NCBI GenBank assembly: GCA_964525495.1
Contig: CAZGHS010000009.1
Span: 1 to 54,910, forward strand
Direction of reading: 5' to 3'
Source: an uncultured Gammaproteobacteria bacterium
Lineage (GTDB): Bacteria; Patescibacteriota; Microgenomatia; JALYQM01
DNA length: 54,910 nt
Shown here: positions 2,116 to 36,553 of the stretch, one piece after another
Layout: the number at the start of each line of letters is the position of its first letter
Position numbering within the stretch: position 1 is the first letter of the stretch
Program-made: the position numbers and the translations under genes
Notes under the pieces: model-generated
Told to the model about the DNA's origin: nothing
The model's input: only the letters and a program-made list of their open reading frames with translations
Databases searched by the model: none

Positions 2116-3543
2116 ATGGTTAGAACACGAATAGCCCCTTCACCAACAGGTTTTCCACATATTGGAACTATATATCAAGTGCTTTTTGACTATGCTGTCG
2201 CGCATAAAGCGAATGGTCAATTTGTATTTCGTCTCGAGGATACAGATCGAGCCCGTTTGGTCGATGGTGCTGAAGAAGCTGTCTATGAGAGTTTGGCTTG
2301 GTTCGGTTTGAATCCTGATGAGAGTCCCGTGGTAGGTGGACCTTGTGGACCATATCGACAATCTGAGAGACTTGATATTTATCGACCGTATGTAGATGAA
2401 CTGATTGTGAAAGGTCATGCGTATCACTGTTTTTGTACTAAAGAGCGTTTGGAAGAGATGCGCAAGCAGCAGGAAATAGAGCATAAACCTCCGATGTACG
2501 ACAGGTTGTGTCGGGGATTGTCAGCAGAGGAAATAAAAAAGAACTTAGATGCTGGCATGGCGTATGTTGTGCGTATGAAAGTACCGGATGGTGAGGTATT
2601 GGCTTTTGATGATGTTATTGCTGGTCATATTGAATTTAAGAGCGAACTGATCGATGACCAGGTTTTGCTTAAAACTGACGGTTTTCCTACATATCATATG
2701 GCTGTAGTGGTCGATGATCATTTGATGAAGATCACTCATATCTTGCGTGGTAAAGAGTGGATTTCTTCAACTCCTAAACATGTATTGCTCTATCGATTTT
2801 TTGGATGGGATATGCCGATCCATGCACATTTGCCTTTGATTCTTAATTCGGATGGTAAGGGGAAATTGTCAAAGCGACATGGTCATTCATCGGTTAATTA
2901 TTATCGGGAGCGAGGATATTTGCCTGAAGCGATTTTGAACTATATGTCTTTGATCGTCTGGAATCATCCAGAGAAAAAAGAGATTTATGGTTTGGACGAG
3001 TTTGTGAATTTATTTGAGATATCTGGTATTACTTCTCAGGGTCCACGGTTTGATTTGGCAAAGCTTGATTGGGTGAACGGACAGTGGATCCGGACAATGC
3101 TGACGGATTCAGACTTAATACAAAGAATTAAAGCGTATTCAAAGTATTCTGTCGAACAAATTGAAAGGGTTTTGCCTTTAGTAAAAGAGCGTTTAGTGCG
3201 ACTTGATGAGTTTGATGAATTAGTTGCGTTCTTTTTTAATGACGTCGAAGCTTACGATTCTAGTTTGTTAATTCCTAAGAATAAGAGTGCAGCGGATGTT
3301 AAAGATGTTTTGCCCACAATTATTGAGCGGCTTGATGTGATGTCGACATGGACACATGCTGATTTGGAATCTGCTTTGCGTGGGATAGTAGAGGAAAAGG
3401 GATGGAAGGTTGGAGAGTTGTTTATGGTCGTGCGTGTTGCGGTGACTGGTAGAACAGCTACTCCTCCGTTGTTTGAGACAATGGAAGTTATTGGTAAACC
3501 TGAATGTTTAGTTCGTCTTCGAAATTCGCTTTCACTTGTATAG
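2116..3543 (+). CDS. gltX: glutamate--tRNA ligase
   Basis: 475 aa. The N-terminus RIAPSPTGFPHIGT carries the HIGH motif and KLSKRHG the KMSKS motif. The overall class-I GluRS layout is present. Confidence 0.93.
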   Translation: MVRTRIAPSPTGFPHIGTIYQVLFDYAVAHKANGQFVFRLEDTDRARLVDGAEEAVYESLAWFGLNPDESPVVGGPCGPYRQSERLDIYRPYVDELIVKGHAYHCFCTKERLEEMRKQQEIEHKPPMYDRLCRGLSAEEIKKNLDAGMAYVVRMKVPDGEVLAFDDVIAGHIEFKSELIDDQVLLKTDGFPTYHMAVVVDDHLMKITHILRGKEWISSTPKHVLLYRFFGWDMPIHAHLPLILNSDGKGKLSKRHGHSSVNYYRERGYLPEAILNYMSLIVWNHPEKKEIYGLDEFVNLFEISGITSQGPRFDLAKLDWVNGQWIRTMLTDSDLIQRIKAYSKYSVEQIERVLPLVKERLVRLDEFDELVAFFFNDVEAYDSSLLIPKNKSAADVKDVLPTIIERLDVMSTWTHADLESALRGIVEEKGWKVGELFMVVRVAVTGRTATPPLFETMEVIGKPECLVRLRNSLSLV

Positions 3544-5179: not shown

Positions 5180-5250
5180 TGCCAGATGGTGAAATGGTAT
5201 CACAACGGACTCTGAATCCGTTTTTCTAGGTTCGAATCCTAGTCTGGCAA
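5180..5250 (+). tRNA. tRNA-Gln (anticodon CUG)
   Basis: Cloverleaf folded by eye. Acceptor stem TGCCAGA/TCTGGCA (U1-A72), D stem GTGA/TCAC, anticodon stem ACGGA/TCCGT with loop CTCTGAA, T arm CTAGG-TTCGAAT-CCTAG. No CCA is encoded. Confidence 0.85.
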
Positions 5251-14073: not shown

Positions 14074-15129
14074 ATGAAGCCGACATGGCAAAAATTGCGA
14101 GACAATCCAGAATTAATGAAAAGTTATCTTGCTCGAGAGAAGGTAATAGATGCTATTCGTGCGTATTTTAAATCGTCTGGGTTTTTGGAAGTTGAAACTC
14201 CCTTGATGGTGAAGATGCCTGGGATGGAGCCTTATTTGGAAGTGTTTGAGAGTGAATTGTTGGACGCTCCAGGAGATAAACATAGAACTTTTTTGATTAC
14301 TTCACCAGAGTATGCAATGAAGAAATTGTTGGTGGTTGGGTTGCCTAAAATCTTTCAGATCTGTAAGTGTTTTCGTAATGGTGAGGATTTACGGAGTTCA
14401 ACTCACAATCCGGAATTTACAATGATTGAATGGTATCGGATTGAGTCGAATTATACTGATTTGATGCGCGATTGCGAAGAGATGGTTTGCTCGATTTATG
14501 ATGCGGTTGTTGGCGATAGGATAGACGGGAAACGAGTTTTGAAGTATCAGGGGCAGGAAGTATCGGTTGATGGACCGTGGGAACGAATCTCTGTGGCTCA
14601 AGCATTTGAAAAGTATGCAGGAGTAAACGAGGATTGGTTGCAGAATAGTGAAGAGATGAAGCGAGTCGCTATTGAAAAAGGATATTCCGTTGATGACGAT
14701 ACAACTTGGGAACAAGTGTTTCATCAGATATTTTTGAATGAAGTAGAGCCACATCTTGGATATGGTAAGCCCACTATATTATATGACTATCCTGCATCTA
14801 TGGCTGCGTTATCGCGTAAAAAGCCTGGAGATGACAGATATGCTGAGAGGTTTGAGTTTTATATTTTGGGTAAGGAATTGGGAAATGGATTCTCGGAGCT
14901 GACTGATGCGGTGGAGCAAGATGATCGATTGCGAGCAGAGTGGCAAGAGCGTAAAGATTTAGGTAAGAAAATGTATGATGTGGATGAGGATTTTATTAAT
15001 GCGCTGAAGGTAGGAATGCCGGAGGCTGCGGGGATTGCAGTAGGGATTGATAGGTTGATAATGCTGTTTGCGAACGTGTCTACGATTCAGGAGACTTTGT
15101 GGTTTCCAGCGAATGAATCATTTTTCTAA
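14074..15129 (+). CDS. epmA: elongation factor P--(R)-beta-lysine ligase (truncated class II LysRS paralog, PoxA/GenX)
   Basis: 351 aa. It matches E. coli EpmA blocks: FLEVETP, ITSPEYAMKKLLV, FQICKCFRNGE, HNPEFTMIEWY, ERFEFY..G.ELGNGFSELTD and ALKVGMPEAAGIAVGIDRL. It sits immediately upstream of efp. Confidence 0.85.
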   Translation: MKPTWQKLRDNPELMKSYLAREKVIDAIRAYFKSSGFLEVETPLMVKMPGMEPYLEVFESELLDAPGDKHRTFLITSPEYAMKKLLVVGLPKIFQICKCFRNGEDLRSSTHNPEFTMIEWYRIESNYTDLMRDCEEMVCSIYDAVVGDRIDGKRVLKYQGQEVSVDGPWERISVAQAFEKYAGVNEDWLQNSEEMKRVAIEKGYSVDDDTTWEQVFHQIFLNEVEPHLGYGKPTILYDYPASMAALSRKKPGDDRYAERFEFYILGKELGNGFSELTDAVEQDDRLRAEWQERKDLGKKMYDVDEDFINALKVGMPEAAGIAVGIDRLIMLFANVSTIQETLWFPANESFF

Positions 15130-15130
15130 A

Positions 15131-15159
15131 TTGCGCTCATTGAGCTATTTGTATATAAT
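15131..15159 (+). promoter_or_regulatory. candidate promoter for efp
   Basis: TTGCGC (15131-15136), a 17-nt spacer, then TATAAT (15154-15159). Confidence 0.35.
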
Positions 15160-15193
15160 CCCTTTCAGTTACAGTTTAGATACGGGTATTTTT

Positions 15194-15763
15194 ATGGCAG
15201 TAATTGCAGTTTCAGAACTCAAAAAAGGTTTATATATTGTTTTTAAGGACGAGCCTAATCAGGTGAGTGCTATGGATTTCGTGAATCCAGGTAAGGGCTC
15301 GGCTTTTTATCGCGTAAAGTTAAAAAGTTTAAAGACTGGTCGTGTGGTAGAAAACACGTTTAAATCTGGTGAAATGGTTGAAGATTATCCAGTGGATACT
15401 CGTGAAATGCAATTTTTATACAAAGATAATGACAATGGGTATTTCATGAACCCGTTTACATATGAGCAGATTAGCATGCTTTTGGATTTGGTCGGTGATT
15501 TTGCTCAGTTTTTGCAGGATGGTCAGACATATCAGGTGCTGATGCACGGTGATGATGCTATCGGTATGCGACCACCAAAGCGAGTTGTATTTAAAATAGC
15601 CTCAACTGAGAAGACTGCAGCAGGCAATACTGCTGGTCGTGTGTTGAAGCCAGCTACGCTCGAAAATGGCGTAGAAGTCCAAGTCCCTGCCTTTATTAAA
15701 GAAGGCGATAAAGTGGCTCTGAATCCTGAATCAGGTGAGTATTTGGAGCGGGTAAACGACTAG
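15194..15763 (+). CDS. efp: elongation factor P
   Basis: The start is trimmed to MAVIAVSELKKG. The modification loop VNPGKGSAFYRVKLK is conserved, including the Lys. The 189-aa length is typical. Confidence 0.92.
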   Translation: MAVIAVSELKKGLYIVFKDEPNQVSAMDFVNPGKGSAFYRVKLKSLKTGRVVENTFKSGEMVEDYPVDTREMQFLYKDNDNGYFMNPFTYEQISMLLDLVGDFAQFLQDGQTYQVLMHGDDAIGMRPPKRVVFKIASTEKTAAGNTAGRVLKPATLENGVEVQVPAFIKEGDKVALNPESGEYLERVND

Positions 15764-15981: not shown

Positions 15982-18900
15982 ATGTGTATGCGACGCACAG
16001 CATTTTTTGGGGCAGTAGCCTTCATTCTTACTTCATTATTTCTGACTAATGTGCCAGCAGTTTTTGCTGCACCACCTGCAAACTTTCAGTCAACCTTAGT
16101 TGCGGGAAGTGGTTTGAACGGTCCTTCAGCTTTCGAGTTCGCTCCTGACGGTCGTATTTTTATACTTGAGCGTGCTGGTAAGGTAAAGATATATAAGAAT
16201 GGTCAGGTTTTAGCCACACCATTCGTTGATCTTCCTTCTGCAGCTTCAGGCGATCGTGGTTTGATCGGTATCGCTTTTGACCCTGATTTTAATACTAATC
16301 ACTACGTTTATTTTTGGTACACCTCTTCAGGTGATTTCATGAATAGACTCGTTCGTTTTACTGCTACTGGCGATGTTGCTACAGATGGTCCAGTGCAGAT
16401 TTACCAGACAGCGCTTCCTTCTCAAGAACTTCACGTTGGTGGAGGTTTGGCGTTTGGTTCTGATGGAAAGATCTATATAGGTATTGGGGACAACGGTTAT
16501 TCAGCCAATGCGCAGAATATGGCTGTGCCTTTTGGAAAAATGATGAGAATTAATAAGGACGGCACGATCCCAGCTGATAATCCTTATGTAGGCCAAGCTA
16601 ATGTGTTGCCAGAAATATGGGCACATGGACTCCGTAATCCATGGAGAGCTCAGTTTGATTCCGTTACGGGACGACTCTATGTTTCTGACGTTGGAGATAA
16701 TAGTTGGGAAGAAGTAAACATGATTAGCCGTGCGGGGAATTACGGATGGCCTACAGTTGAGGGCATGTGTACCGTCAATTGCGGCAATTTTATAGATCCA
16801 GTTCATACATACTTTCATGATGACGTGAGTTCTGCTGTTACAGGTGGACCTGTGTATCGTGGTGACATGTTTCCCGAGTCATATCAAGGACGTTATTTCT
16901 TTGCAGATTATGCTCGTGGATTTATTAAGAGTCTGAGTTTAAATGCAGCTGGTACTGTTGGTACACCTTCAGATTTTGATTTGAGTGCAGGTAGCGTTGT
17001 TGATTTGAAGGAAGCCTATGATGGCTCTATTTATTACATAACATACTATCCAGGTCGTTTGTATCGTATCAGCTATTCAGAAGGTAATACTATTCCGGTT
17101 GCGAATGCTGGTGCTGATAAAACAAAAGGTGTTGAGCCGCTTACGGTTAACTTCACAAGTGCAGGTAGCTTTGATCCTGATGGTAGTCCGTTAACCTTTA
17201 ATTGGAACTTTGGTGATGGCACAACATCTACTGCTGCCAATCCTATAAAAACATTTACTGTTAAGGGTGCCTATACGGTTACTTTGCATGTAAGCGATGG
17301 AGATAATATAGCTGAAGCTGTTCCTTTAGTTATTCAAGTTGGTTTACCTCCGACAGTTCGTATTGCTGCTCCTGAGAATAATTCTTTGTGGAGAATGGGC
17401 GATACTATTTTCTATACTGCTTCAGGTATAGATGGTGCTGGCTTTGACTTGCATGATTCAGATTTTACGACTGAAGTTTTGTTCCATCATGATACACACA
17501 CTCATCCATTCCTCGGACCAATCCAGAGTAAAACAGGTACATTCGCTATTCCTCTCAGCGGAGAGCATGATCCAGATGTTTGGTTTGAGATCATGATTAC
17601 AGCTCACGACACTAATGGGCTGTCTACAACTGAACGCGTAAATATTTATCCAGTTAAGTCTTTGTATAAAGTTCAGACGAACATTGCTGGTATGAACATC
17701 AATATTGACGGAGTTCCGACTGCGGCTCCTTATGAGTCACTTGGTGTTGTGAACTATCAGCGTGAGCTAGAAGCTCCAATGTTCCAGACAGTAGCTGGTA
17801 AGTTGTATCAGTTTGAAAGTTGGTCAGATGGCGGCGCTGCGAAGCACATGGTTTCCGTGCCGGAAAATAATGTTACGTGGACAGCTACCTATCAAGAAGT
17901 CCCAGCCTTTACAGGACAGTATTTCAATAATATGAACTTGCAGGGAGCACCTGTGCTTACCCGCCAGGATCCATCAATTGATTTTGAATGGAATGCAGGT
18001 TCACCAGCTCCCGTAGTTAATGTAAATAATTTCTCAGCACGCTGGACACGTACTCAGATCTTTGGCGGTGGTACCTACACATTTACTACTACAACTGATG
18101 ACGGCGTACGTTTGTATATCGACGACGTGATGATTATGGATAACTGGCAAGATCAGGGAATGTTCCCGGCTGACAGTGTGACTGTGGATATTGCTGCAGG
18201 TGAACATGAGATTGTTATGGAATACTATGACAATCAGTTTGACGCAATTGCAAAGCTTACCTGGTCATTTGTTCCAGGCGAACCTACACCAACTCCGACA
18301 CCTACAACGGGTGGATATAATGCAGCGTTTTGGAATACTCCAACAGCAGGTAGCGCTCCAGCTATCCCTGTTACAGCTCCAGACGTAACTCGTGTTGATA
18401 CTGCTATCGACTATGATTGGGGAGATGTTTCACCAATTGCTCCAATCGCTAAGGATCACTACGTAGTGCGCTGGACAAAGGCGGTGACTTTACAAGAAGG
18501 TTTGTATAAGTTTACTACTGAATCTGATGATGGTATCCGCGTGTATGTTGATAACCTTCCGTTGATTGATCAATGGAATGATCATGGTGTGACTACACAT
18601 ACTGCTGAAAAAATATTAACAGCAGGTGTACATGATATTCGCGTTGAGTATTATGAAAATGGTTGGGACGCAGTTGCTAAATTTAAGTACGACTTTATGG
18701 GTGCTGCTACTCCAATCCCAACAGTTACACCGACTTTGGCTCCAACTGCTGTGCCTACTGCGACTGCTAGTGCTACCCCGGTAGCTTCAGCGAGTGCAAC
18801 ACCAGTTGCGACTGCATCAGCAACTCCTACTCCAGGTGCTGGTTCGGTGATCACCGTGTATGCAGCAGGCATACCAGCCTTAGGAGTATATCCAAACATG

Positions 18901-20154
18901 AATTTGTTAATCAACGATGTGGTAGTTGCTACATTTACTAATGTAGACGGCAATGGCAATATCCCTACTTACAAGCCGTATACTTATACACACGCTTCTG
19001 CTGTTACTGGTGCTCAAGTAAAAGTCCTGTTTACTAATGATGCATATGCAGGGGATGACAACGATCGTAATCTGCGTGTTGACCGTATAACAATTGATGG
19101 TGTGACATATCAGTCTGAGGACGTACGTGTTTACTCAACAGGAGCTGATCCAGGACCAGGATGCGCACCAGGATATCAGGTAACAGAGTGGCTTAATTGT
19201 AATGGATATTTCCAGTACTTTAATCAGGCAGTACCAACAGCTACCCCTGTAGCTACAGCAACGCCTATCGCTACAGCCAGTGCTACACCTGTAGGAACAG
19301 CTACACCAATTCCAACTGGAACACCAGTTTCAACAAACTATTTTGCGGAATACTGGAATAACAAAACACTAACAGGTCCTGCAGCTTTGACACGAAATGA
19401 AACCACAATTGATCATGACTGGGGAATGGGTTCGCCAGATACAATCGTACCGGTTGATAACTTTTCAGCTCGTTGGACTAAAACCGCAAATCTTCCTTCA
19501 GGTATCTATCGATTTACCGTGACTGGGGACGATGGTGTCCGTTTGTTTGTAGATGAAGTTAAGGTAATAGATAAGTGGATTGATCAAGGACGAACAACAT
19601 ATACAGTCGATCTTCCATTACAAACAGGTAATCATGCGATCAGATTTGAGTATTTTGAAACAGGATATACCGCTGTTGCTAAGATGAGCTATACAAAGAC
19701 AGCTGAACTTCCAGTTGGACCTACACCAACTGCAGTCCCAACTCCTACAGCAACACCATTTGATGGATATGTAGCTCAATACTGGAATACACCAGGTGTT
19801 GGTAGCGCTCCAGCTATGCCAGCCGGTGCTCCGACTCTTACGCGAAATGAAGCAAAAATTGATAACTACTGGGGCGCAGGTTCACCAGACGCGTCAATCA
19901 GTGTAGATAAGTTTATTGCACGATGGACACGAACTACTACATTCGCAGCTGGAACATATCAGTTCTGGACTGAGTCTGACGACGGTATCCGAGTTTATAT
20001 TGATGATGAATTGGTAATCAATCAGTGGAACGATCATGGTGTAACAGCCTTTACTGGAAATAAAACATTAACAGCAGGTGCGCATACTATCCGTGTTGAA
20101 TATTACGAAGGCGGATGGGATGCAGTAGCTAAATTTAATTGGACACAGTTATAA
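15982..20154 (+). CDS. secreted multidomain protein: PQQ-type sugar (glucose/sorbosone) dehydrogenase beta-propeller + PKD + 4x PA14 + CBM-like module
   Basis: 1390 aa with a signal peptide ending VFA/AP. The SGDH-like propeller carries GLIGIAFDPDF, HVGGGLAFG.DGKIYIGIGDNG, HGLRNPWR and NYGWP. The PKD domain has PLTVNFTSAGSFDPDG...WNFGDG. Four PA14 repeats each contain FSARW/VVRW/IARWT...DDG(V/I)R(L/V)(Y/F)(I/V)D. PT/ASATPVA linkers separate the domains. Confidence 0.85.
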   Translation: MCMRRTAFFGAVAFILTSLFLTNVPAVFAAPPANFQSTLVAGSGLNGPSAFEFAPDGRIFILERAGKVKIYKNGQVLATPFVDLPSAASGDRGLIGIAFDPDFNTNHYVYFWYTSSGDFMNRLVRFTATGDVATDGPVQIYQTALPSQELHVGGGLAFGSDGKIYIGIGDNGYSANAQNMAVPFGKMMRINKDGTIPADNPYVGQANVLPEIWAHGLRNPWRAQFDSVTGRLYVSDVGDNSWEEVNMISRAGNYGWPTVEGMCTVNCGNFIDPVHTYFHDDVSSAVTGGPVYRGDMFPESYQGRYFFADYARGFIKSLSLNAAGTVGTPSDFDLSAGSVVDLKEAYDGSIYYITYYPGRLYRISYSEGNTIPVANAGADKTKGVEPLTVNFTSAGSFDPDGSPLTFNWNFGDGTTSTAANPIKTFTVKGAYTVTLHVSDGDNIAEAVPLVIQVGLPPTVRIAAPENNSLWRMGDTIFYTASGIDGAGFDLHDSDFTTEVLFHHDTHTHPFLGPIQSKTGTFAIPLSGEHDPDVWFEIMITAHDTNGLSTTERVNIYPVKSLYKVQTNIAGMNINIDGVPTAAPYESLGVVNYQRELEAPMFQTVAGKLYQFESWSDGGAAKHMVSVPENNVTWTATYQEVPAFTGQYFNNMNLQGAPVLTRQDPSIDFEWNAGSPAPVVNVNNFSARWTRTQIFGGGTYTFTTTTDDGVRLYIDDVMIMDNWQDQGMFPADSVTVDIAAGEHEIVMEYYDNQFDAIAKLTWSFVPGEPTPTPTPTTGGYNAAFWNTPTAGSAPAIPVTAPDVTRVDTAIDYDWGDVSPIAPIAKDHYVVRWTKAVTLQEGLYKFTTESDDGIRVYVDNLPLIDQWNDHGVTTHTAEKILTAGVHDIRVEYYENGWDAVAKFKYDFMGAATPIPTVTPTLAPTAVPTATASATPVASASATPVATASATPTPGAGSVITVYAAGIPALGVYPNMNLLINDVVVATFTNVDGNGNIPTYKPYTYTHASAVTGAQVKVLFTNDAYAGDDNDRNLRVDRITIDGVTYQSEDVRVYSTGADPGPGCAPGYQVTEWLNCNGYFQYFNQAVPTATPVATATPIATASATPVGTATPIPTGTPVSTNYFAEYWNNKTLTGPAALTRNETTIDHDWGMGSPDTIVPVDNFSARWTKTANLPSGIYRFTVTGDDGVRLFVDEVKVIDKWIDQGRTTYTVDLPLQTGNHAIRFEYFETGYTAVAKMSYTKTAELPVGPTPTAVPTPTATPFDGYVAQYWNTPGVGSAPAMPAGAPTLTRNEAKIDNYWGAGSPDASISVDKFIARWTRTTTFAAGTYQFWTESDDGIRVYIDDELVINQWNDHGVTAFTGNKTLTAGAHTIRVEYYEGGWDAVAKFNWTQL
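17908..20151 (+). repeat. four in-frame PA14-domain coding repeats
   Basis: Repeat units lie at about 17908-18270, 18316-18696, 19339-19698 and 19768-20151. They are separated by Pro/Thr linkers. A non-PA14 insert at about 18840-19140 carries the motif NDRNLRVDRITIDG. Confidence 0.8.
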
Positions 20155-22296: not shown

Positions 22297-24939
22297 ATGA
22301 ATACTTTCAAATCTTTCTTATCCCGTATTAAAGTTGAGCACATACTTATTTTTGTGTTGCTTGAAATTTCTGCGATTGCTCATGGCTATAACATGTTTAA
22401 TTTTCCTTATTATGAAAATGATGAAGGAACGTATATGTCTCAAGCGTGGTCTGTAGTGACGCAAGGGGAGCTGGCGCCTTACACATACTGGTATGATCAT
22501 GCGCCGCTTGGATGGTTTTTCATTGGGTTATGGACATTGGTAACGGGCGGATTCTTTACTTTTGGTATGTCTGTCAATTCTGGTCGTGTGTTTATGCTTG
22601 TATTACAAGTTGTTTCTTCGTTTTTCTTGTATGCAATCACAAAGAAGGTGACTGGTAGTAAACTCGGTGGAATTATAGCCGTGTTGCTGTTTTCGCTTTC
22701 ACCATTGGCAATTTACTTTCATCGTCGTGTGTTGCTTGACAATATAATGGTGTTTTGGCTACTGGCTTCATTTTATGTATTGACTGTTAAAAGATTACGA
22801 ATTACGACGATTGTGTTTTCGGCTTTGTTATTTGGTATAGCTATATTAACTAAAGAGAGCGCAGTATTTTTTATTCCAGCGATGATTATGATATTAGTTG
22901 TTCAGCTGAAAGCTGAGCAGCGAATCTTCTCGATCGTACAGTGGGTTGCGATTGTTGCTTCAATTGTATCTGTGTATATCTTGTATGCAGTGCTTAAGGG
23001 TGAGTTCTTTGCAAGCGGTTCCTTGCTTGGTGGTTCGGGGCAGCATGTGAGTTTACTTGAGACCCTGAAGTTTCAAGCCGCGCGTGGTAATGGTGCCCCT
23101 TTATGGGATTTGGGACGGAATCAGTTTGTGCATGAAGTGACGCAATGGTTTAAGCAAGATGCGTTTTTGATCGTGTCTGGTGGGATAGCAGTAGTGAGCA
23201 TGATTTTTGTGAGCTTTAAAAAACGTCAGTATCTTCCTTTCGTAGTTGCTGCTTTAGGATATTTGTTTTATTTAGCGCGTGGTGGAAATATTATTGAGTT
23301 TTATGTATTGCCGCTTATTCCGATTATTGCGTTGTTAGTTGGTGGTGTGGTTTGTGAAGCTTCTCGTTTAGTTTTGAGTTTGCTTTCTTTAAAAAGTAAC
23401 TCATTTAAACTGCAGTATGCGATGTATGGTATCACGACACTCGCGATGGTTGTAGGAATTTCCTATTATTATGCTAATTTTGGCATGATGAATCGTGGAC
23501 ACAATATTTATACTGCAAATCAAACTAAAGCTCAGATAGAAGCAGTTGCGTGGATTCGTGAGCATGTGAATCCGGAAACAGTGTTTACCTTTGATAACTA
23601 TGCACATATTGATTTGAAATCAACTCAAAATCCAAGTGGAGTATATTTTCCTCAAGCACAGTGGTACTTAAAAGTGGATTCAGATCCTGAAGTTAGATAC
23701 GATGCGCTTGGAGGAACTGCAGCATCGATATCCATGATCGCCATGACTCCTCAGACGCATTATGATATCGAGCATAATGAATTAAACTTTCTTAAGAGTG
23801 CAGCTGATCAGTCAGACAAGGTTAAAGTGTTTTGGAGTGAGGGATGGGGTGTCGAGATTTGGGAAACAAAATTTCCTGCACATTTAATGGCTCGGTCGTG
23901 GGATAGCTATAAAAAATCATTTATCACACAAGACGGTCGAACTATAGATCTAGAACATAGCTACGAGACATCATCTGAGATGCAAGCGTATTCTATGTTG
24001 CGTGCAGTGTGGATTGATGATAAAGAAACGTTCGATTTGCTTTGGTCATGGAGTGAGAAGAACTTACAAAAGGAGAATAAGTTGTTTGCAGGGCTTTGGG
24101 GAGAGTTGCAAAATGGAGAGTGGGGTGTAGAGGCAACTGCATCTCGTAGTAGTGCAGATGTAGATTCTGCATTGGCTTTGATTTTGGCTTCAACTAAGTG
24201 GAACGATGCTTCATATTTGGAGGATTCAAAGCAGATTGTTCAAGCGATACGAACTCATGAAATAGCATCAGGAAAATATGTATTGGCTGGAGATGCACAG
24301 TCACAGAAAGATATCGTAGTGCATGTTCCTTCATTATCACCTTATGCGTATCGAGCTTTTGCCAGTGTTGATACAGGATATGATTGGAATGGGGTTCTAA
24401 CTACTACTTACGATATGCTTGCAGGCTGTAGTTCTCTTTCTAGTGTCTATATTTCTCCAGAATGGTGTAGTGTAGACACCAAGACTAAGTTGGCATATAG
24501 AGAGGCTCAGGGCGATAATTCAGGTAGAATTGTACGCTCAAGTCAAATCCCTTGGAAGCTAGCGCTTGATTATGTATGGAGTAAAGATGCTCGTGCTTTG
24601 GAATACTTGAAAAAAGGATCATTTTATAAAGATGAGTATTCTCGTTCTGGGAAAGTTTTTACCGAGTACTCGTTGAGTGGTAAGCCTACTTCGAACTGGG
24701 AATCTGTCGCTGGATATGCAGGAGCTTTAGGTTCTCTTTCGGTGGCTGATAAATCACAATTAGATAAGCTGTATACCAATAAGATTTTGACTTCGTACTA
24801 TTATGACGATCCAGGATATGTGTATTGGGAAGATCCAGATAATGTATCGGTACAGAATTGGGGTTGGCTTATGGTAGGTCTTTACGATAATAAGCTGTTT
24901 CAGCCTACTTTTGCTGCGCAAACAGCTTCAGCACAATAA
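22297..24939 (+). CDS. fusion: GT-C (PMT/ArnT, GT39-like) membrane glycosyltransferase + C-terminal glycoside hydrolase family 8-like domain
   Basis: 880 aa. The N-terminal ~400 aa are polytopic, with YENDEGTYMSQAW in the first loop (a DE motif). The C-terminal part has GH8-like blocks (TSSEMQAYSMLRAV, SSADVDSALALILAST, SPEW). The GH8 call rests on motif recall. Confidence 0.65.
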   Translation: MNTFKSFLSRIKVEHILIFVLLEISAIAHGYNMFNFPYYENDEGTYMSQAWSVVTQGELAPYTYWYDHAPLGWFFIGLWTLVTGGFFTFGMSVNSGRVFMLVLQVVSSFFLYAITKKVTGSKLGGIIAVLLFSLSPLAIYFHRRVLLDNIMVFWLLASFYVLTVKRLRITTIVFSALLFGIAILTKESAVFFIPAMIMILVVQLKAEQRIFSIVQWVAIVASIVSVYILYAVLKGEFFASGSLLGGSGQHVSLLETLKFQAARGNGAPLWDLGRNQFVHEVTQWFKQDAFLIVSGGIAVVSMIFVSFKKRQYLPFVVAALGYLFYLARGGNIIEFYVLPLIPIIALLVGGVVCEASRLVLSLLSLKSNSFKLQYAMYGITTLAMVVGISYYYANFGMMNRGHNIYTANQTKAQIEAVAWIREHVNPETVFTFDNYAHIDLKSTQNPSGVYFPQAQWYLKVDSDPEVRYDALGGTAASISMIAMTPQTHYDIEHNELNFLKSAADQSDKVKVFWSEGWGVEIWETKFPAHLMARSWDSYKKSFITQDGRTIDLEHSYETSSEMQAYSMLRAVWIDDKETFDLLWSWSEKNLQKENKLFAGLWGELQNGEWGVEATASRSSADVDSALALILASTKWNDASYLEDSKQIVQAIRTHEIASGKYVLAGDAQSQKDIVVHVPSLSPYAYRAFASVDTGYDWNGVLTTTYDMLAGCSSLSSVYISPEWCSVDTKTKLAYREAQGDNSGRIVRSSQIPWKLALDYVWSKDARALEYLKKGSFYKDEYSRSGKVFTEYSLSGKPTSNWESVAGYAGALGSLSVADKSQLDKLYTNKILTSYYYDDPGYVYWEDPDNVSVQNWGWLMVGLYDNKLFQPTFAAQTASAQ

Positions 24940-33528: not shown

Positions 33529-33864
33529 ATGTTAACGAAACAAGATTTACTGCTTATACGAGAAGTTATTACTGAAGTTGTAAATCCTCGATTTGATGCT
33601 TTGGAAAAACGAATTGAAAAAGTAGAAAAGCGATTGGGTTCCGTGGAAAAGCGGATGGATGTCCTTGAAAAGCGCATAGGTAGTTTAGAAAAAAGAATGG
33701 ATATTCTTGAGTTTAAGATGGATGAGATGCGTGGCGCTTTGAATGGAACCATTGCATATTTGGATAAGCAAAAAAACGTTATTAATAAACGCTTTGAGCG
33801 TCTTGAAATTAGAATGGGTATGTATAATTCACAAGATCCACTGATATTGCGAGATAAGGTATAA
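33529..33864 (+). CDS. heptad-repeat coiled-coil protein (111 aa), hypothetical
   Basis: It has six consecutive 7-aa units: EKRIEKV, EKRLGSV, EKRMDVL, EKRIGSL, EKRMDIL, EFKMDEM. No SD is visible. Confidence 0.5.
   Translation: MLTKQDLLLIREVITEVVNPRFDALEKRIEKVEKRLGSVEKRMDVLEKRIGSLEKRMDILEFKMDEMRGALNGTIAYLDKQKNVINKRFERLEIRMGMYNSQDPLILRDKV
33604..33729 (+). repeat. 6 x 21-bp degenerate in-frame tandem repeat
   Basis: Each unit follows gaaaa(a/g)cg.at.g...... with a 21-nt period, read directly from the sequence. Confidence 0.8.
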
Positions 33865-33872
33865 TAATACTA

Positions 33873-35096
33873 ATGTTTGACTCTCAAGCCATAAAACAGC
33901 AATTCCCTATCATGAACCGTGAAATAAATGGAAAGCCTTTGGTTTTTCTTGATTCTGCTGCGAGTGCACAGAAGCCGCAGGGTGTCTTGGATGTGATGGA
34001 TGAGTTTGTAAAAAATCACTACGCGAATATTAATCGTGGTGTGTATACGTTGAGCGAAGAAGCTACAGAGCGAGTTGAACAAGTACGGGAAAAGGTTGCT
34101 AAGTTTATTGGAGCGGCTGCTGAGGAAATAGTGTTTACGCGGAATGCGACGGAGTCAATTAATTTGGTTGCGTATTCATGGGCGCGACTTAATTTGAAAA
34201 AGGGTGATGTGGTGGTGGTGACTGAAATGGAGCACCATGCGAATATTGTGCCCTGGCAATTGCTGCGAGATGAACTTGGTATTGAGATTAAATGGATTAC
34301 AGTGAGTGAAGAGGGATATTTGGAGTGGGGAAAATTTAAGTCTGAGAATACTGATGAGAATATTAAATTGGTGTGCGTAACACATGTTTCGAACGTAGTG
34401 GGAACTATTAATCAAGTCAAGGGAATTGGTGCGTGGGCGCATTCGATTGGCGCGAAGATTTTGGTGGATGGTGCACAAGGTGTGACGAATATTTCGGTTG
34501 ATGTGCGAGACATAGATTGTGATTGGTATGTGTTTTCCGGACATAAACTATATGGACCGACAGGAATAGGTGTTTTGTATGGGAAGAAAGAATTGCTTGA
34601 TGCAATGCCGCCGTTTATGGGTGGTGGGGATATGATTTTGGAAGTGCATAAAGAAAAGACGCAGTTTAAAGCTGCGCCGTATAAATTTGAAGCGGGAACA
34701 CCCGCGATTGTCGAGATTGTGGGACTGGGAGCAGCTATAGATTTTGTTTTGGAACTTGGAATTGAGAATATTCGAAAACATAATTTAGAGTTGCTTGAGT
34801 ATGCGATGCTGAGACTTGCAGAGATCGACGGTTTGCGCGTTTACGGACCTGAGAGTTTGGCTGATCGCGGTGGCGTAGTGTCTTTTGCTATGGAAGGCGC
34901 GCATCCACATGATATTGCGACTATTTTAAATGAAGACGGGATTGCTGTTCGTAGTGGGCATCACTGTGCACAACCGTTATGTGATCGATATGGTCAGCCT
35001 GCATTGGCACGCATAAGTTTTGGTGTGTATAACACAAAAGAAGATATAGATAGTTTGATAGAAAGTCTGAAAAAAGTAGTAGAAACTTTTAAATAA
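33873..35096 (+). CDS. sufS: cysteine desulfurase, SufS type (class V aminotransferase, group II)
   Basis: 407 aa. It has a PLP-Lys context (FSGHKLYGPTGIGVLYG), the active-site loop RSGHHCAQP, and HHANIVPW. Confidence 0.9.
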   Translation: MFDSQAIKQQFPIMNREINGKPLVFLDSAASAQKPQGVLDVMDEFVKNHYANINRGVYTLSEEATERVEQVREKVAKFIGAAAEEIVFTRNATESINLVAYSWARLNLKKGDVVVVTEMEHHANIVPWQLLRDELGIEIKWITVSEEGYLEWGKFKSENTDENIKLVCVTHVSNVVGTINQVKGIGAWAHSIGAKILVDGAQGVTNISVDVRDIDCDWYVFSGHKLYGPTGIGVLYGKKELLDAMPPFMGGGDMILEVHKEKTQFKAAPYKFEAGTPAIVEIVGLGAAIDFVLELGIENIRKHNLELLEYAMLRLAEIDGLRVYGPESLADRGGVVSFAMEGAHPHDIATILNEDGIAVRSGHHCAQPLCDRYGQPALARISFGVYNTKEDIDSLIESLKKVVETFK

Positions 35097-35222
35097 TTTT
35101 TTGTTTTTGATTTGGGAAAAAGAATACACAAGACGGGGTATAGAGAATTTGATTTAGTCAAACAATTTTTAGTCAACCTAAAAATATATTTATCCTAAGA
35201 AATTTTTCTTTACGTTTACTTG

Positions 35223-36037
35223 ATTTAGTAATAAGAGAGGGTGGCGCCCAGCAAACTATCTTGCGGCTGCAAGTCTAATTTACTGGGCGTCCCCGGCGCT
35301 GGCAGGAGCTATTTTTTATTCAGTTGTCATTCGCGCTCAATTGCGCTAGGGTTGGTTCATAGTGTCAAATCCTCTCTTGGGCGCTGTTTGTCGCGGATAT
35401 CAAGGTAGCTGCTGGTCGGTGGGGCGCAGGTGATCAAATTATAGCGCGCAATGCGCAGCGGGTTGGTACCAGGTCATCTGCATTCCTTTCTATTGCGCAG
35501 AATCGATTCTACGGCGCAGATTCGATTGGATTTTTTCAAAAGGAAAGATTACCCGCGGGTGCGGTCGGCGGCAATAGTATTAGTATTGCGTCGGCCAGGG
35601 TTGAACCCGCGGGTGTTTTTGTGTTCGCGAAAAAGAGACCAGAGCCTGCAGTGCTAAAGGCGCGGCTGCCTCTTAGCATTGATCAACTGCAGGCTCTCGG
35701 CGCGTGGCGCGCTGGCTGGCTTATCGGCCGGTGCCGCGGCGGGCGCTCTGGCTGGAGTTGGCGCTGCTCATATAGGTACCAAAACTGTTCGTGCGGATTC
35801 GTTTGTTCGGGGGCATGGCGGTGTCCTTTCTGTTGTCCTGATTCTACAGTCACTAGAGGAAGGCTACTTCTGCCTTTCAGCACCGGGACTTGCACTCTTG
35901 CGAGTACAAATTGTAAGAATTTTGCACGAGTTCTAGACCTCGAGCTACTTCTTACCTGAAGGCATTATGCACATAACAATTGATTATTATGTAGATAATA
36001 CCCTCAAAGTAAGATTAGCTTTTGTTTATTACTAAAT
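35223..36037. ncRNA. unclassified GC-rich, helix-dense non-coding element (candidate large structured RNA or MITE-like insert)
   Basis: It lies in a 1106-nt gap between sufS and sufU that has no credible ORF. It is closed by a perfect 12-bp complement (35223-35234 / 36026-36037). Several perfect or near-perfect nested helices lie inside. G-U pairs slightly favour the + strand. Confidence 0.45.
35551..35621 (+). terminator. long two-tier hairpin followed by a U-tract inside the GC-rich element
   Basis: ACCCGCGGGT (35551-35560) pairs with ACCCGCGGGT (35605-35614). The nested stem 35563-35576 / 35584-35596 has 13 bp, including 2 G-U pairs and 1 bulge. GTTTTTG follows. Confidence 0.45.
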
Positions 36038-36202
36038 AAGTCCGTCTTGTGTTAAGGGTCAAACATCCCCGGAGGGACGATCTTCACTATGTTGTGCTCT
36101 CTATGAGCTCAATTGGTGTTGATAGGTGCTATTTTTAGCATATTCTATATAATTGTCAATAGGTATTGTTATAGGCTCTTTTAGTGCTGGTATAATAGAG
36201 GT

Positions 36203-36553
36203 ATGAATTTGTATCAGGAAGAGATCCTGGATCACTATAAACATCCACGAAATAAAGGCCGTCTGGCTCATTCTACGAGCTCGGGAGAGGCTTCTAACCC
36301 ACTTTGTGGAGATAGGCTTGGGCTGGATATAGTAGTGAAAAATGGCTTGGTTGAAGAGGTTGGTTTTTGGGGAGAGGGATGTGCTATTTCACAGGCCGCT
36401 ATGTCGATGGTGAGTGAACAGGTGATAGGGCAATCAGTCGAGGATTTAAAGAAGCTTTCTAAGGATGATGTTTTGGAGTTGCTTGGTGTAGATGTTGGAC
36501 CTTCACGGTTGAAGTGTGCTTTGTTGTGCTTGTCTGTAATCGAGAGAGTGTAA
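36203..36553 (+). CDS. sufU: SufU/IscU-type Fe-S scaffold or sulfur-acceptor protein
   Basis: 116 aa with LYQEEILDHYKHPRN, NPLCGD, GEGCAISQA and KCALL. The three conserved Cys ligands are present. Confidence 0.85.
   Translation: MNLYQEEILDHYKHPRNKGRLAHSTSSGEASNPLCGDRLGLDIVVKNGLVEEVGFWGEGCAISQAAMSMVSEQVIGQSVEDLKKLSKDDVLELLGVDVGPSRLKCALLCLSVIERV

Follow-up and report, generated by a model that had tools for sequence, protein, structure and literature searches.

The 54,910-nt stretch of contig CAZGHS010000009.1 analyzed here (hereafter the window) carries a suf cluster in which the genes for the cysteine desulfurase SufS (33873-35096, + strand; Aminotran_5, E 3.4e-143) and the scaffold protein SufU (36203-36553, + strand; NifU_N, E 3.4e-27) are separated by a spacer of 1106 nt, the largest gap of the window on a crude gene map. 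An earlier note on the same DNA had singled out this spacer as the largest non-coding gap, and re-measurement returns the same value. Within it lies a GC-rich, hairpin-dense element enclosed by a split inverted repeat, the nature of which is the subject of this analysis.

That the element is an insertion can be seen from the related loci. The nearest SufS proteins among 5.8 billion protein clusters are 61-70% identical to that of the window, and a scan of a genome collection with SufS recovered relatives of only ~50% identity; the loci compared here come from nine lineages whose SufS is 62-70% identical. The common gene order is dnaK-dnaJ-sufBD-(variable)-sufS-sufU-ferredoxin-dsbA-...-GT4-GT4-hexapeptide transferase. 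In L082, L085/L086, L087, L090/L091, and L092/L093, sufS and sufU are spaced by merely 1-18 nt. The same slot is occupied by a 92-aa membrane-like open reading frame (ORF) in L083 (6233-6511), by a tRNA_edit protein and a 222-aa protein in L089 (4084-5251), and by HIT, tRNA_edit, and a 96-aa ORF on the P0011 contig, whereas L088 ends 37 nt past sufS and is uninformative on the slot. The earlier note had asked whether the site is empty elsewhere; since the orthologous sites are indeed empty in six related lineages, the spacer element is an insertion. Moreover, the presence of protein genes in this slot in three lineages implies that the junction accepts insertions repeatedly, and among the compared loci the insert of the window is the only non-coding one. 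As for descent from those slot genes, a tblastn search of the relatives' inserted proteins against the element found no similarity.

The lineage-specific insertion as a whole occupies 35097-36187 (~1.09 kb), i.e., it begins at the sufS stop codon and ends immediately ahead of the conserved TGgTATAAT-N6-ATG of sufU. Its right edge is placed at ~36187 because the TATAAT-N6-ATG arrangement is shared with relatives: it is common to the window, L087, L089, and L090 and is kept both with and without insertions. Hence, the TGgTATAAT (36188-36196, + strand), which resembles an extended -10 box and precedes the sufU ATG by 6 nt, is native and no part of the insert. A second variable slot exists in the cluster between sufBD and sufS, where the window has a 111-aa coiled-coil ORF (33529-33864) and the relatives have unrelated ORFs of 218 aa (L085, 4324-4980) or 142 aa (L087, 3535-3963), or nothing.

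The base composition of the insert is foreign to its surroundings. In 200-nt windows, the mean G+C content of the 55-kb window is 40.8%, with a standard deviation of 4.5%, and the segment 35551-35750, at 63.5%, is its strongest outlier, lying 5 standard deviations over the mean. The core (35235-35945; 711 nt) has 54% G+C, many local hairpins, and a + strand rich in G+T, and the left arm region preceding it (35097-35234) has 24% G+C. The counts by which the core had earlier been set off from its flanks, 46/60 G+C at 35701-35760 and 12/60 at 35161-35220, are exact, and the sharp compositional difference that had been drawn from them holds up. No comparable GC island occurs in ~100 kb of the relatives' loci.

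The element is closed by an inverted repeat whose right arm is contiguous and whose left arm is split. The right arm, (T)TTATTACTAAAT-AAGT-CCGTCTTGTGT (36025-36052), pairs over its 27 nt at 36026-36052 with three left segments (35126-35136, 35218-35221, and 35223-35234), which are separated from one another by an 81-nt AT-rich hairpin and a single bulged G. The outer left arm, ACACAAGACGG (35126-35136), is complementary to 36042-36052 at 11/11 positions with a pairing probability of 0.98. The inner left arm (35218-35235), consisting of ACTT, the bulged G, and then ATTTAGTAATAA(G), pairs with 36025-36041 at probabilities of 0.78-0.94; it is perfect at 12/12 positions from 35223/36026 onward and gains 4-5 more pairs in the predicted fold. 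Two separate long-range complements had been described here previously: both are perfect, but they are really the two ends of one 27-nt right arm. The hairpin that splits the left half (35137-35217, + strand) is predicted to form helices at 35142-35147/35204-35209 and 35165-35172/35178-35185 with pairing probabilities of 0.86-0.97. A perfect long-range stem of at least 11 bp arises in 7/200 dinucleotide shuffles and one of at least 12 bp in 2/200, and the actual sequence has two such stems that are nested and collinear; the closing repeat is therefore significant against shuffles. The outer flanks read ...AAAAAGAAT|ACACAAG on the left and CTTGTGT|TAAGGGTC on the right. Longer terminal repeats were sought by aligning the left end to the reverse-complemented right end, and the two are alike only in the 11 + 4 + 12 arms. 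A third copy of ACACAAGACGG at 23926 lies within a gene, has no further likeness to the element, and is taken as a chance match.

The repeat-bounded unit (927 nt) is not the whole insertion, because another ~165 nt of AT-rich insert flank the repeat (35097-35125 and 36053-36187). The right flank (36053-36187) is AT-rich, is likewise missing from the relatives, and has promoter-like hexamers on both strands. Two minor features of these AT-rich parts may be recorded. The motif TTGATTT(G/A)G appears three times in the left spacer (35106-35120, 35148-35162, and 35220-35236), of which the last overlaps the inner left arm; it may serve for protein binding or mark a target site, or it may be a chance product of AT-richness. 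Two short direct repeats also join the core (35295-35343) with the right flank outside the inverted repeat (36107-36136), namely GGCGCTGGCAGGAGCTATTTTT/GGTGTTGATAGGTGCTATTTTT, which are 77% identical, and GCTCAATTG, which is exact; their order differs between the two places.

Inside the arms, the helices previously reported are all present, and the description of one stem needs correction. At the left end, the AGAGAGG/CCTCTCT helix (35234/35371) pairs at 7/7 positions. It is followed by a + strand hairpin at 35243-35291, in which a 9-bp stem encloses CTTGC-GGCT-GCAAG with pairing probabilities of 0.99-1.0; here the complement between 35243 and 35279 is 11/13, with the 5-bp CTTGC/GCAAG nested in it. 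A further + strand hairpin at 35426-35481 has a 10-bp stem that includes two G-U pairs (pairing probability 0.95), and the reported direct repeat with 13/14 identities is likewise present. Next comes a long irregular hairpin at 35551-35625 (+ strand; helix probabilities 0.94-1.0), which is followed by GTTTTTGTGTT. Its stems comprise two copies of ACCCGCGGGT paired over 10 bp (10/10), the 10-mer being itself a palindrome, then 8 bp, and then 5 bp. The nested stem earlier described within 35551-35614 as one of 13 bp does exist, but it is really an 8-bp stem (with two G-U pairs) plus a 5-bp stem. As the 10-bp GC stem closes the hairpin and GUUUUUGUGUU comes directly after, the structure resembles an intrinsic terminator and might act as one, to judge by its sequence; the consensus terminator scan is silent there because its loop limit is 8 nt. 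A T-rich run stands behind the same stem on the - strand too. Further along the + strand, a perfect 12-bp stem, AGAGCCTGCAGT/ACTGCAGGCTCT, surrounds a 9-bp bulged stem (35641-35697; 12/12 at 35641/35686; pairing probability 0.94-0.99), the GTAAGAA/TTCTTAC helix (35913/35949) pairs at 7/7 positions, and an AT-rich 3' hairpin with four helices (35942-36021; pairing probabilities 0.90-0.98) lies just inside the right arm. No tandem repeats were found.

This density of helices is well above chance on either strand. The fold z-scores of 35120-36060 are -6.4 for the + strand and -11.9 for the - strand, and that of the core alone is -4.9 on the + strand (20 shuffles each), with most of the main helices having a pairing probability of >0.9 in the predicted fold. 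A low folding energy does not by itself discriminate RNA, however, because DNA palindromes show it as well. The excess structure is nearly all perfectly Watson-Crick and common to both strands, which share 139 pairs and every long perfect stem. There is also an excess of perfect 6-bp palindromes (21 observed against 12.7 +/- 3.5 expected), and these cannot fold into RNA hairpins. The hairpin loops are GGCU, GUUC, CUCU, and AAAA, and none of the element's hairpins has a GNRA or UNCG loop, the types common in evolved RNAs. The earlier note had taken up the question of strand with the finding that three of four non-Watson-Crick positions are G-U on the + strand, and 48 G-U pairs are in fact counted on that strand against 19 on the other; the argument proves uninformative, because a G+T-rich + strand gains wobble pairs by composition alone. 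Perfect helices shared by both strands suit young DNA palindromes better than an evolved RNA.

A DNA-level origin is favored because the structure is Watson-Crick, strand-symmetric, and palindrome-rich, lacks GNRA and UNCG loops, and has a terminator-like hairpin in mid-element. The insertion is accordingly best read, if only tentatively, as what remains, in decayed or non-autonomous form, of an element that was mobile or horizontally acquired and that is bounded by a split 27-nt inverted repeat. Such a remnant might have arrived by transposition or illegitimate recombination. Transcription of sufS would then continue into the insert, along its + strand, and in most cases cease at the hairpin and U-tract of 35551-35625; as these lie between the closing arms, synthesis of a + strand RNA would tend to stop short of the 3' arm. 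The insert would be at most an accidental 3' untranslated region and terminator, without a dedicated RNA function.

The closest known counterparts of such a remnant are the miniature inverted-repeat transposable elements (MITEs), with which the element has in common that it is non-coding, is bounded by perfect terminal inverted repeats, sits in a spacer that is empty in relatives, is self-complementary on both strands, and has no transposase in the window. The likeness is nevertheless partial, and several observations weigh against it. At 927 nt the element is large for a MITE, its left repeat is split by the 81-nt hairpin, its core is far richer in G+C than the host, and ~165 nt of inserted sequence lie outside the repeat. 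There is no target-site duplication, for no direct repeat stands beside either the outer or the inner arms. No second copy was found by blastn in the 55-kb window or in any of the 89 fetched loci, nor is there a known autonomous partner. None of the 55 window ORFs scanned against Pfam matches a transposase, integrase, or recombinase. Wider searches were equally negative, both at the nucleotide level, where neither a blastn search in the 'distant' mode against plasmids and phages, nor an exact look-up of a core 20-mer in viral and metagenome contigs, nor the terminal-repeat pattern run against viral contigs returned a match, and with six-pattern back-translated probes, run for three core segments against viral contigs and for one core segment against metagenome contigs; the metagenome collection probed in both ways holds 241 million records. 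Finally, a structured RNA gene, too, would be expected to show a strong predicted structure and a high G+C content on an AT-rich background. Thus, of the alternative of a mobile insert bounded by terminal repeats, as raised in the earlier note, the inverted repeats and the empty sites stand, and the duplication, as well as a second copy and a transposase in the window, are wanting; it fits somewhat better than an ornate RNA, yet incompletely.

A parallel may also be struck with surveys of long GC-rich intergenic regions (GC-IGRs). In the largest such survey, 250 of the 4714 regions were mobile or repeat candidates as against 55 high-ranking RNA candidates, and most of the unexplained regions stayed unnamed or low-ranking, a region with <5 representatives not being classifiable under its criteria (PMC11109978, Table 1 for the counts). 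The element resembles the 'unnamed' and 'low-ranking' classes of that GC-IGR/DIMPL scheme in being long, GC-rich, and intergenic, with <5 representatives and no consensus model (PMC11109978), and differs from them in being unusually long and helix-dense and in having its insertion documented by empty orthologous sites. It is an orphan, lineage-specific, non-coding insertion of a known kind, closest to a non-autonomous inverted-repeat element, and its likeness to the large ornate RNAs is superficial.

The strongest rival to a mobile remnant is that the acquired insert carries a new, orphan gene for a large structured non-coding RNA, encoded on the + strand and transcribed with the suf genes. 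On this account, the 27-bp closing helix would be an RNase III-type processing stem that releases a GC-rich RNA of ~0.8 kb. The arrangement recalls the processing stems of rRNA precursors, in which a nearly perfect helix of about this length likewise forms from sequences that flank a GC-rich structured segment by hundreds of nt; the left strand of the element's helix is interrupted by the 81-nt hairpin, however, and both the enclosed stable RNA and its processing are only hypothesized. Several observations speak for an RNA. Long, GC-rich intergenic regions of AT-rich genomes are enriched in structured RNAs and serve as the signature for finding them (PMC8723152, PMC6429828, PMC11109978), and the spacer fits it; the + strand z-scores and the high pairing probabilities given above are of the expected sort; the element is oriented like its flanking genes with no terminator between sufS and itself; and it has no coding signal. 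The likeness to GOLLD, ROOL, OLE, raiA, and HEARO goes further, as these too extend over several hundred nt, are GC-rich on an AT-rich background, are predicted to be helix-dense, and lack an ORF. GOLLD and ROOL are often horizontally acquired, as the element probably was.

The searches for a known family came back empty. Rfam 15 (4227 models), run over the whole window at the gathering score, gave a sole match, to tRNA at 5180-5250, and none in the element. At E<=10, the region 35050-36250 yielded just six chance-level matches (E 1.2-8.1, 15-19 bits) to microRNA, CRISPR-repeat, and small-RNA models, those to microRNAs falling on the 35942-36021 hairpin. Accordingly, the element matches no family of Rfam 15 (GOLLD, ROOL, OLE, HEARO, raiA, RNase P, tmRNA, 6S, and ribozymes included), and ARAGORN reports neither a tRNA nor a tmRNA in the element. 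The known classes floated in the earlier note, i.e., GOLLD, ROOL, or OLE or an ORF-less intron, have no such match even at E<=10, and a group I or II intron is excluded by the lack of any intron-model match at that threshold. An intron is also at odds with the site, since the element lies between complete sufS and sufU genes and the relatives show a plain intergenic junction.

Beyond the missing family match, the public-data searches returned no homolog of such an RNA, which would be explained by the under-sampling of this uncultured lineage, and the element is missing at the site in the related lineages (nine fetched, with L088 ending 37 nt past sufS). The structure is moreover Watson-Crick and strand-symmetric with the larger z-score on the - strand (-11.9), its helices are perfect without GNRA or UNCG loops, in which it differs from the large ornate RNAs, and the hairpin and U-tract of 35551-35625 would end a transcript ahead of the closing stem's 3' arm. 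A new RNA gene is for these reasons unlikely, and the fuller proposal of an undescribed RNA of ~0.8-0.9 kb that travels on a mobile or horizontally transferred segment and is excised from suf read-through transcripts at the 27-bp helix, which would make it a new class comparable in scale to ROOL, GOLLD, or OLE, is more doubtful still. Of the ornate-RNA reading in the earlier note, what stands is that the sequence folds far better than chance; comparative support is lacking and several features weaken it.

It is also conceivable that the insert is the relic of a foreign gene cassette from a GC-richer donor, equipped with a terminator and since broken by frameshifts, of which an 85-codon ORF (35679-35936, + strand; TTG start; Gly/Ala-rich product ALAGLSAGAAAGALAGVGAAHIG...) would be all that is left, or else would still encode a working small membrane protein. 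This ORF is the only one with a coding-like signal: its Fourier period-3 signal is 2.4-2.5, at about the 97th percentile of shuffles, and the signal reaches the 95th-99th percentile over 35660-35959 and nowhere else in the element. Its first codon positions are G-rich, a 36-nt direct repeat in frame (GGCGCGCTGGCTGG / GGCGCTCTGGCTGG, 12 codons apart) encodes GALAG twice, and the in-frame log-odds exceed those of the shifted frames by 0.2-0.3 per codon. The protein genes that occupy the same slot in three related lineages would suit such an origin too. Against this, a 3-periodic Markov model trained on genes of the window gives the ORF absolute coding log-odds of ~0, compared with 0.13-0.27 for real genes, and the element's coding log-odds are at or below 0. 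Its sole start is a TTG that lies inside the perfect 12-bp stem, with neither a Shine-Dalgarno sequence nor an ATG. The other ~450 nt of the core have no periodicity, and the relatives' inserted proteins bear no similarity to the element.

The homology searches point the same way. In Pfam at E<=1 there is no match for the ORFs or for any stop-to-stop frame of at least 34 codons in all six frames. A 92-codon frame and a concatenate of ten other frames, by which all six frames were covered, found no match among the 5.8 billion protein clusters, an exact look-up of a 112-aa ORF found no record, and a 198-codon frame gave just two matches among 1.84 billion representatives, the better of which was dismissed after pairwise alignment as a weak repeated match to a repeat protein. 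The 85-codon ORF has neither a homolog nor a Pfam match and is probably not a gene, and a decayed cassette is likewise improbable as the source of the insert. The verdict of the earlier note that no credible ORF exists is upheld, in that no frame has a codon-position bias in G+C, a Pfam match, or a homolog, with the weak local period-3 signal as the exception. In sum, the insert is compositionally foreign, hairpin-dense, and without detectable coding content.

Two further explanations are very unlikely. In the first, the repeats would be recombination sites of an invertible, phase-variable segment served by a recombinase elsewhere, such that flipping of 0.8-0.9 kb changes transcription into sufU or out of sufS. 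Perfect inverted repeats around a segment of this size directly upstream of a gene, and promoter-like hexamers on both strands near its right end, are what such a switch would have; but the 55-kb window has no recombinase or invertase, the promoter-like sites (36119-36146 on the + strand and 36159-36131 on the - strand) lie outside the repeats and are no commoner than in shuffles, sufU has its own -10 box, and phase variation of an iron-sulfur scaffold gene has, in our judgement, no obvious rationale. In the second, a GC-rich fragment of another organism would have been joined into the contig during assembly. The GC-rich core is known from this contig only, its 20-mer has no exact match in the metagenome collection, and L001, a 1004-bp contig of JGI sample 3300046786 and the only other contig found with the SufU of the window organism, starts just right of the core. 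However, an artefact of this type would require two chimeric joins, with the contig coming back to the same locus, and the AT-rich flanks of the core are complementary to each other and hence belong together around it. L001 also confirms a long spacer upstream of sufU, right arm included: its positions 1-174 correspond to 36029-36202 of the window, with 100% identity from its start onward. The start of L001 falls three bases inside the inner arm on the right of the inverted repeat, which could be due to low coverage or to a break in the assembly brought about by the element or a presence/absence polymorphism.

Should the element be no more than an orphan insertion, it would be of modest value, as a record of a slot in the conserved suf cluster that has been used repeatedly and as a hint why this slot tolerates inserts, namely that each gene seems to have its own promoter box at its start codon. 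The sufS gene starts with TATAAT-N7-ATG (33860-33872), and -10-like boxes (TATAAT, TAAAAT, TATACT, and TAGAGT) stand 6-8 nt before many of the ATGs of the window (e.g., at 33860-33872, 36188-36202, 2116, 3948-, 7844, and 32859-). A recognizable Shine-Dalgarno sequence is found in only about a quarter of the window's genes. This combination suggests, so far as sequence can tell, that leaderless transcription units are widespread in the window organism. With a -10 box of its own, sufU would not depend on read-through from sufS, and a terminator-bearing insert would therefore not silence it. If, on the other hand, the element is a functional RNA, a poorly sampled bacterial lineage would have yielded a new class of large RNA. 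Classes of this kind are rare, and recent work has shown them to form unexpected assemblies of RNA only (PMC12286853). To claim as much for the element is not warranted by the present evidence.

Several features of the window away from the suf cluster may be mentioned. ARAGORN places a tRNA-Ser (anticodon tga) at 3441-3531, where it overlaps the 3' end of a glutamyl/glutaminyl-tRNA synthetase ORF (2116-3543); the Rfam tRNA model does not report it at the gathering score, and it may be a false positive, or else the end of the ORF may be wrong. A short class-II aminoacyl-tRNA-synthetase-like protein (351 aa, tRNA-synt_2), in the region 14074-15763, is encoded directly upstream of the gene for elongation factor P and overlaps it, an arrangement that recalls the elongation factor P lysylation enzyme EpmA. 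Farther along, at 15982-20154, lies the gene for a 1390-aa protein that combines a glucose/sorbosone dehydrogenase domain with PKD, CBM60, and four PA14 domains. Genes for large glycosyltransferase and GH8/PMT fusion proteins come next, and this region suggests a surface-glycan or adhesion cluster.

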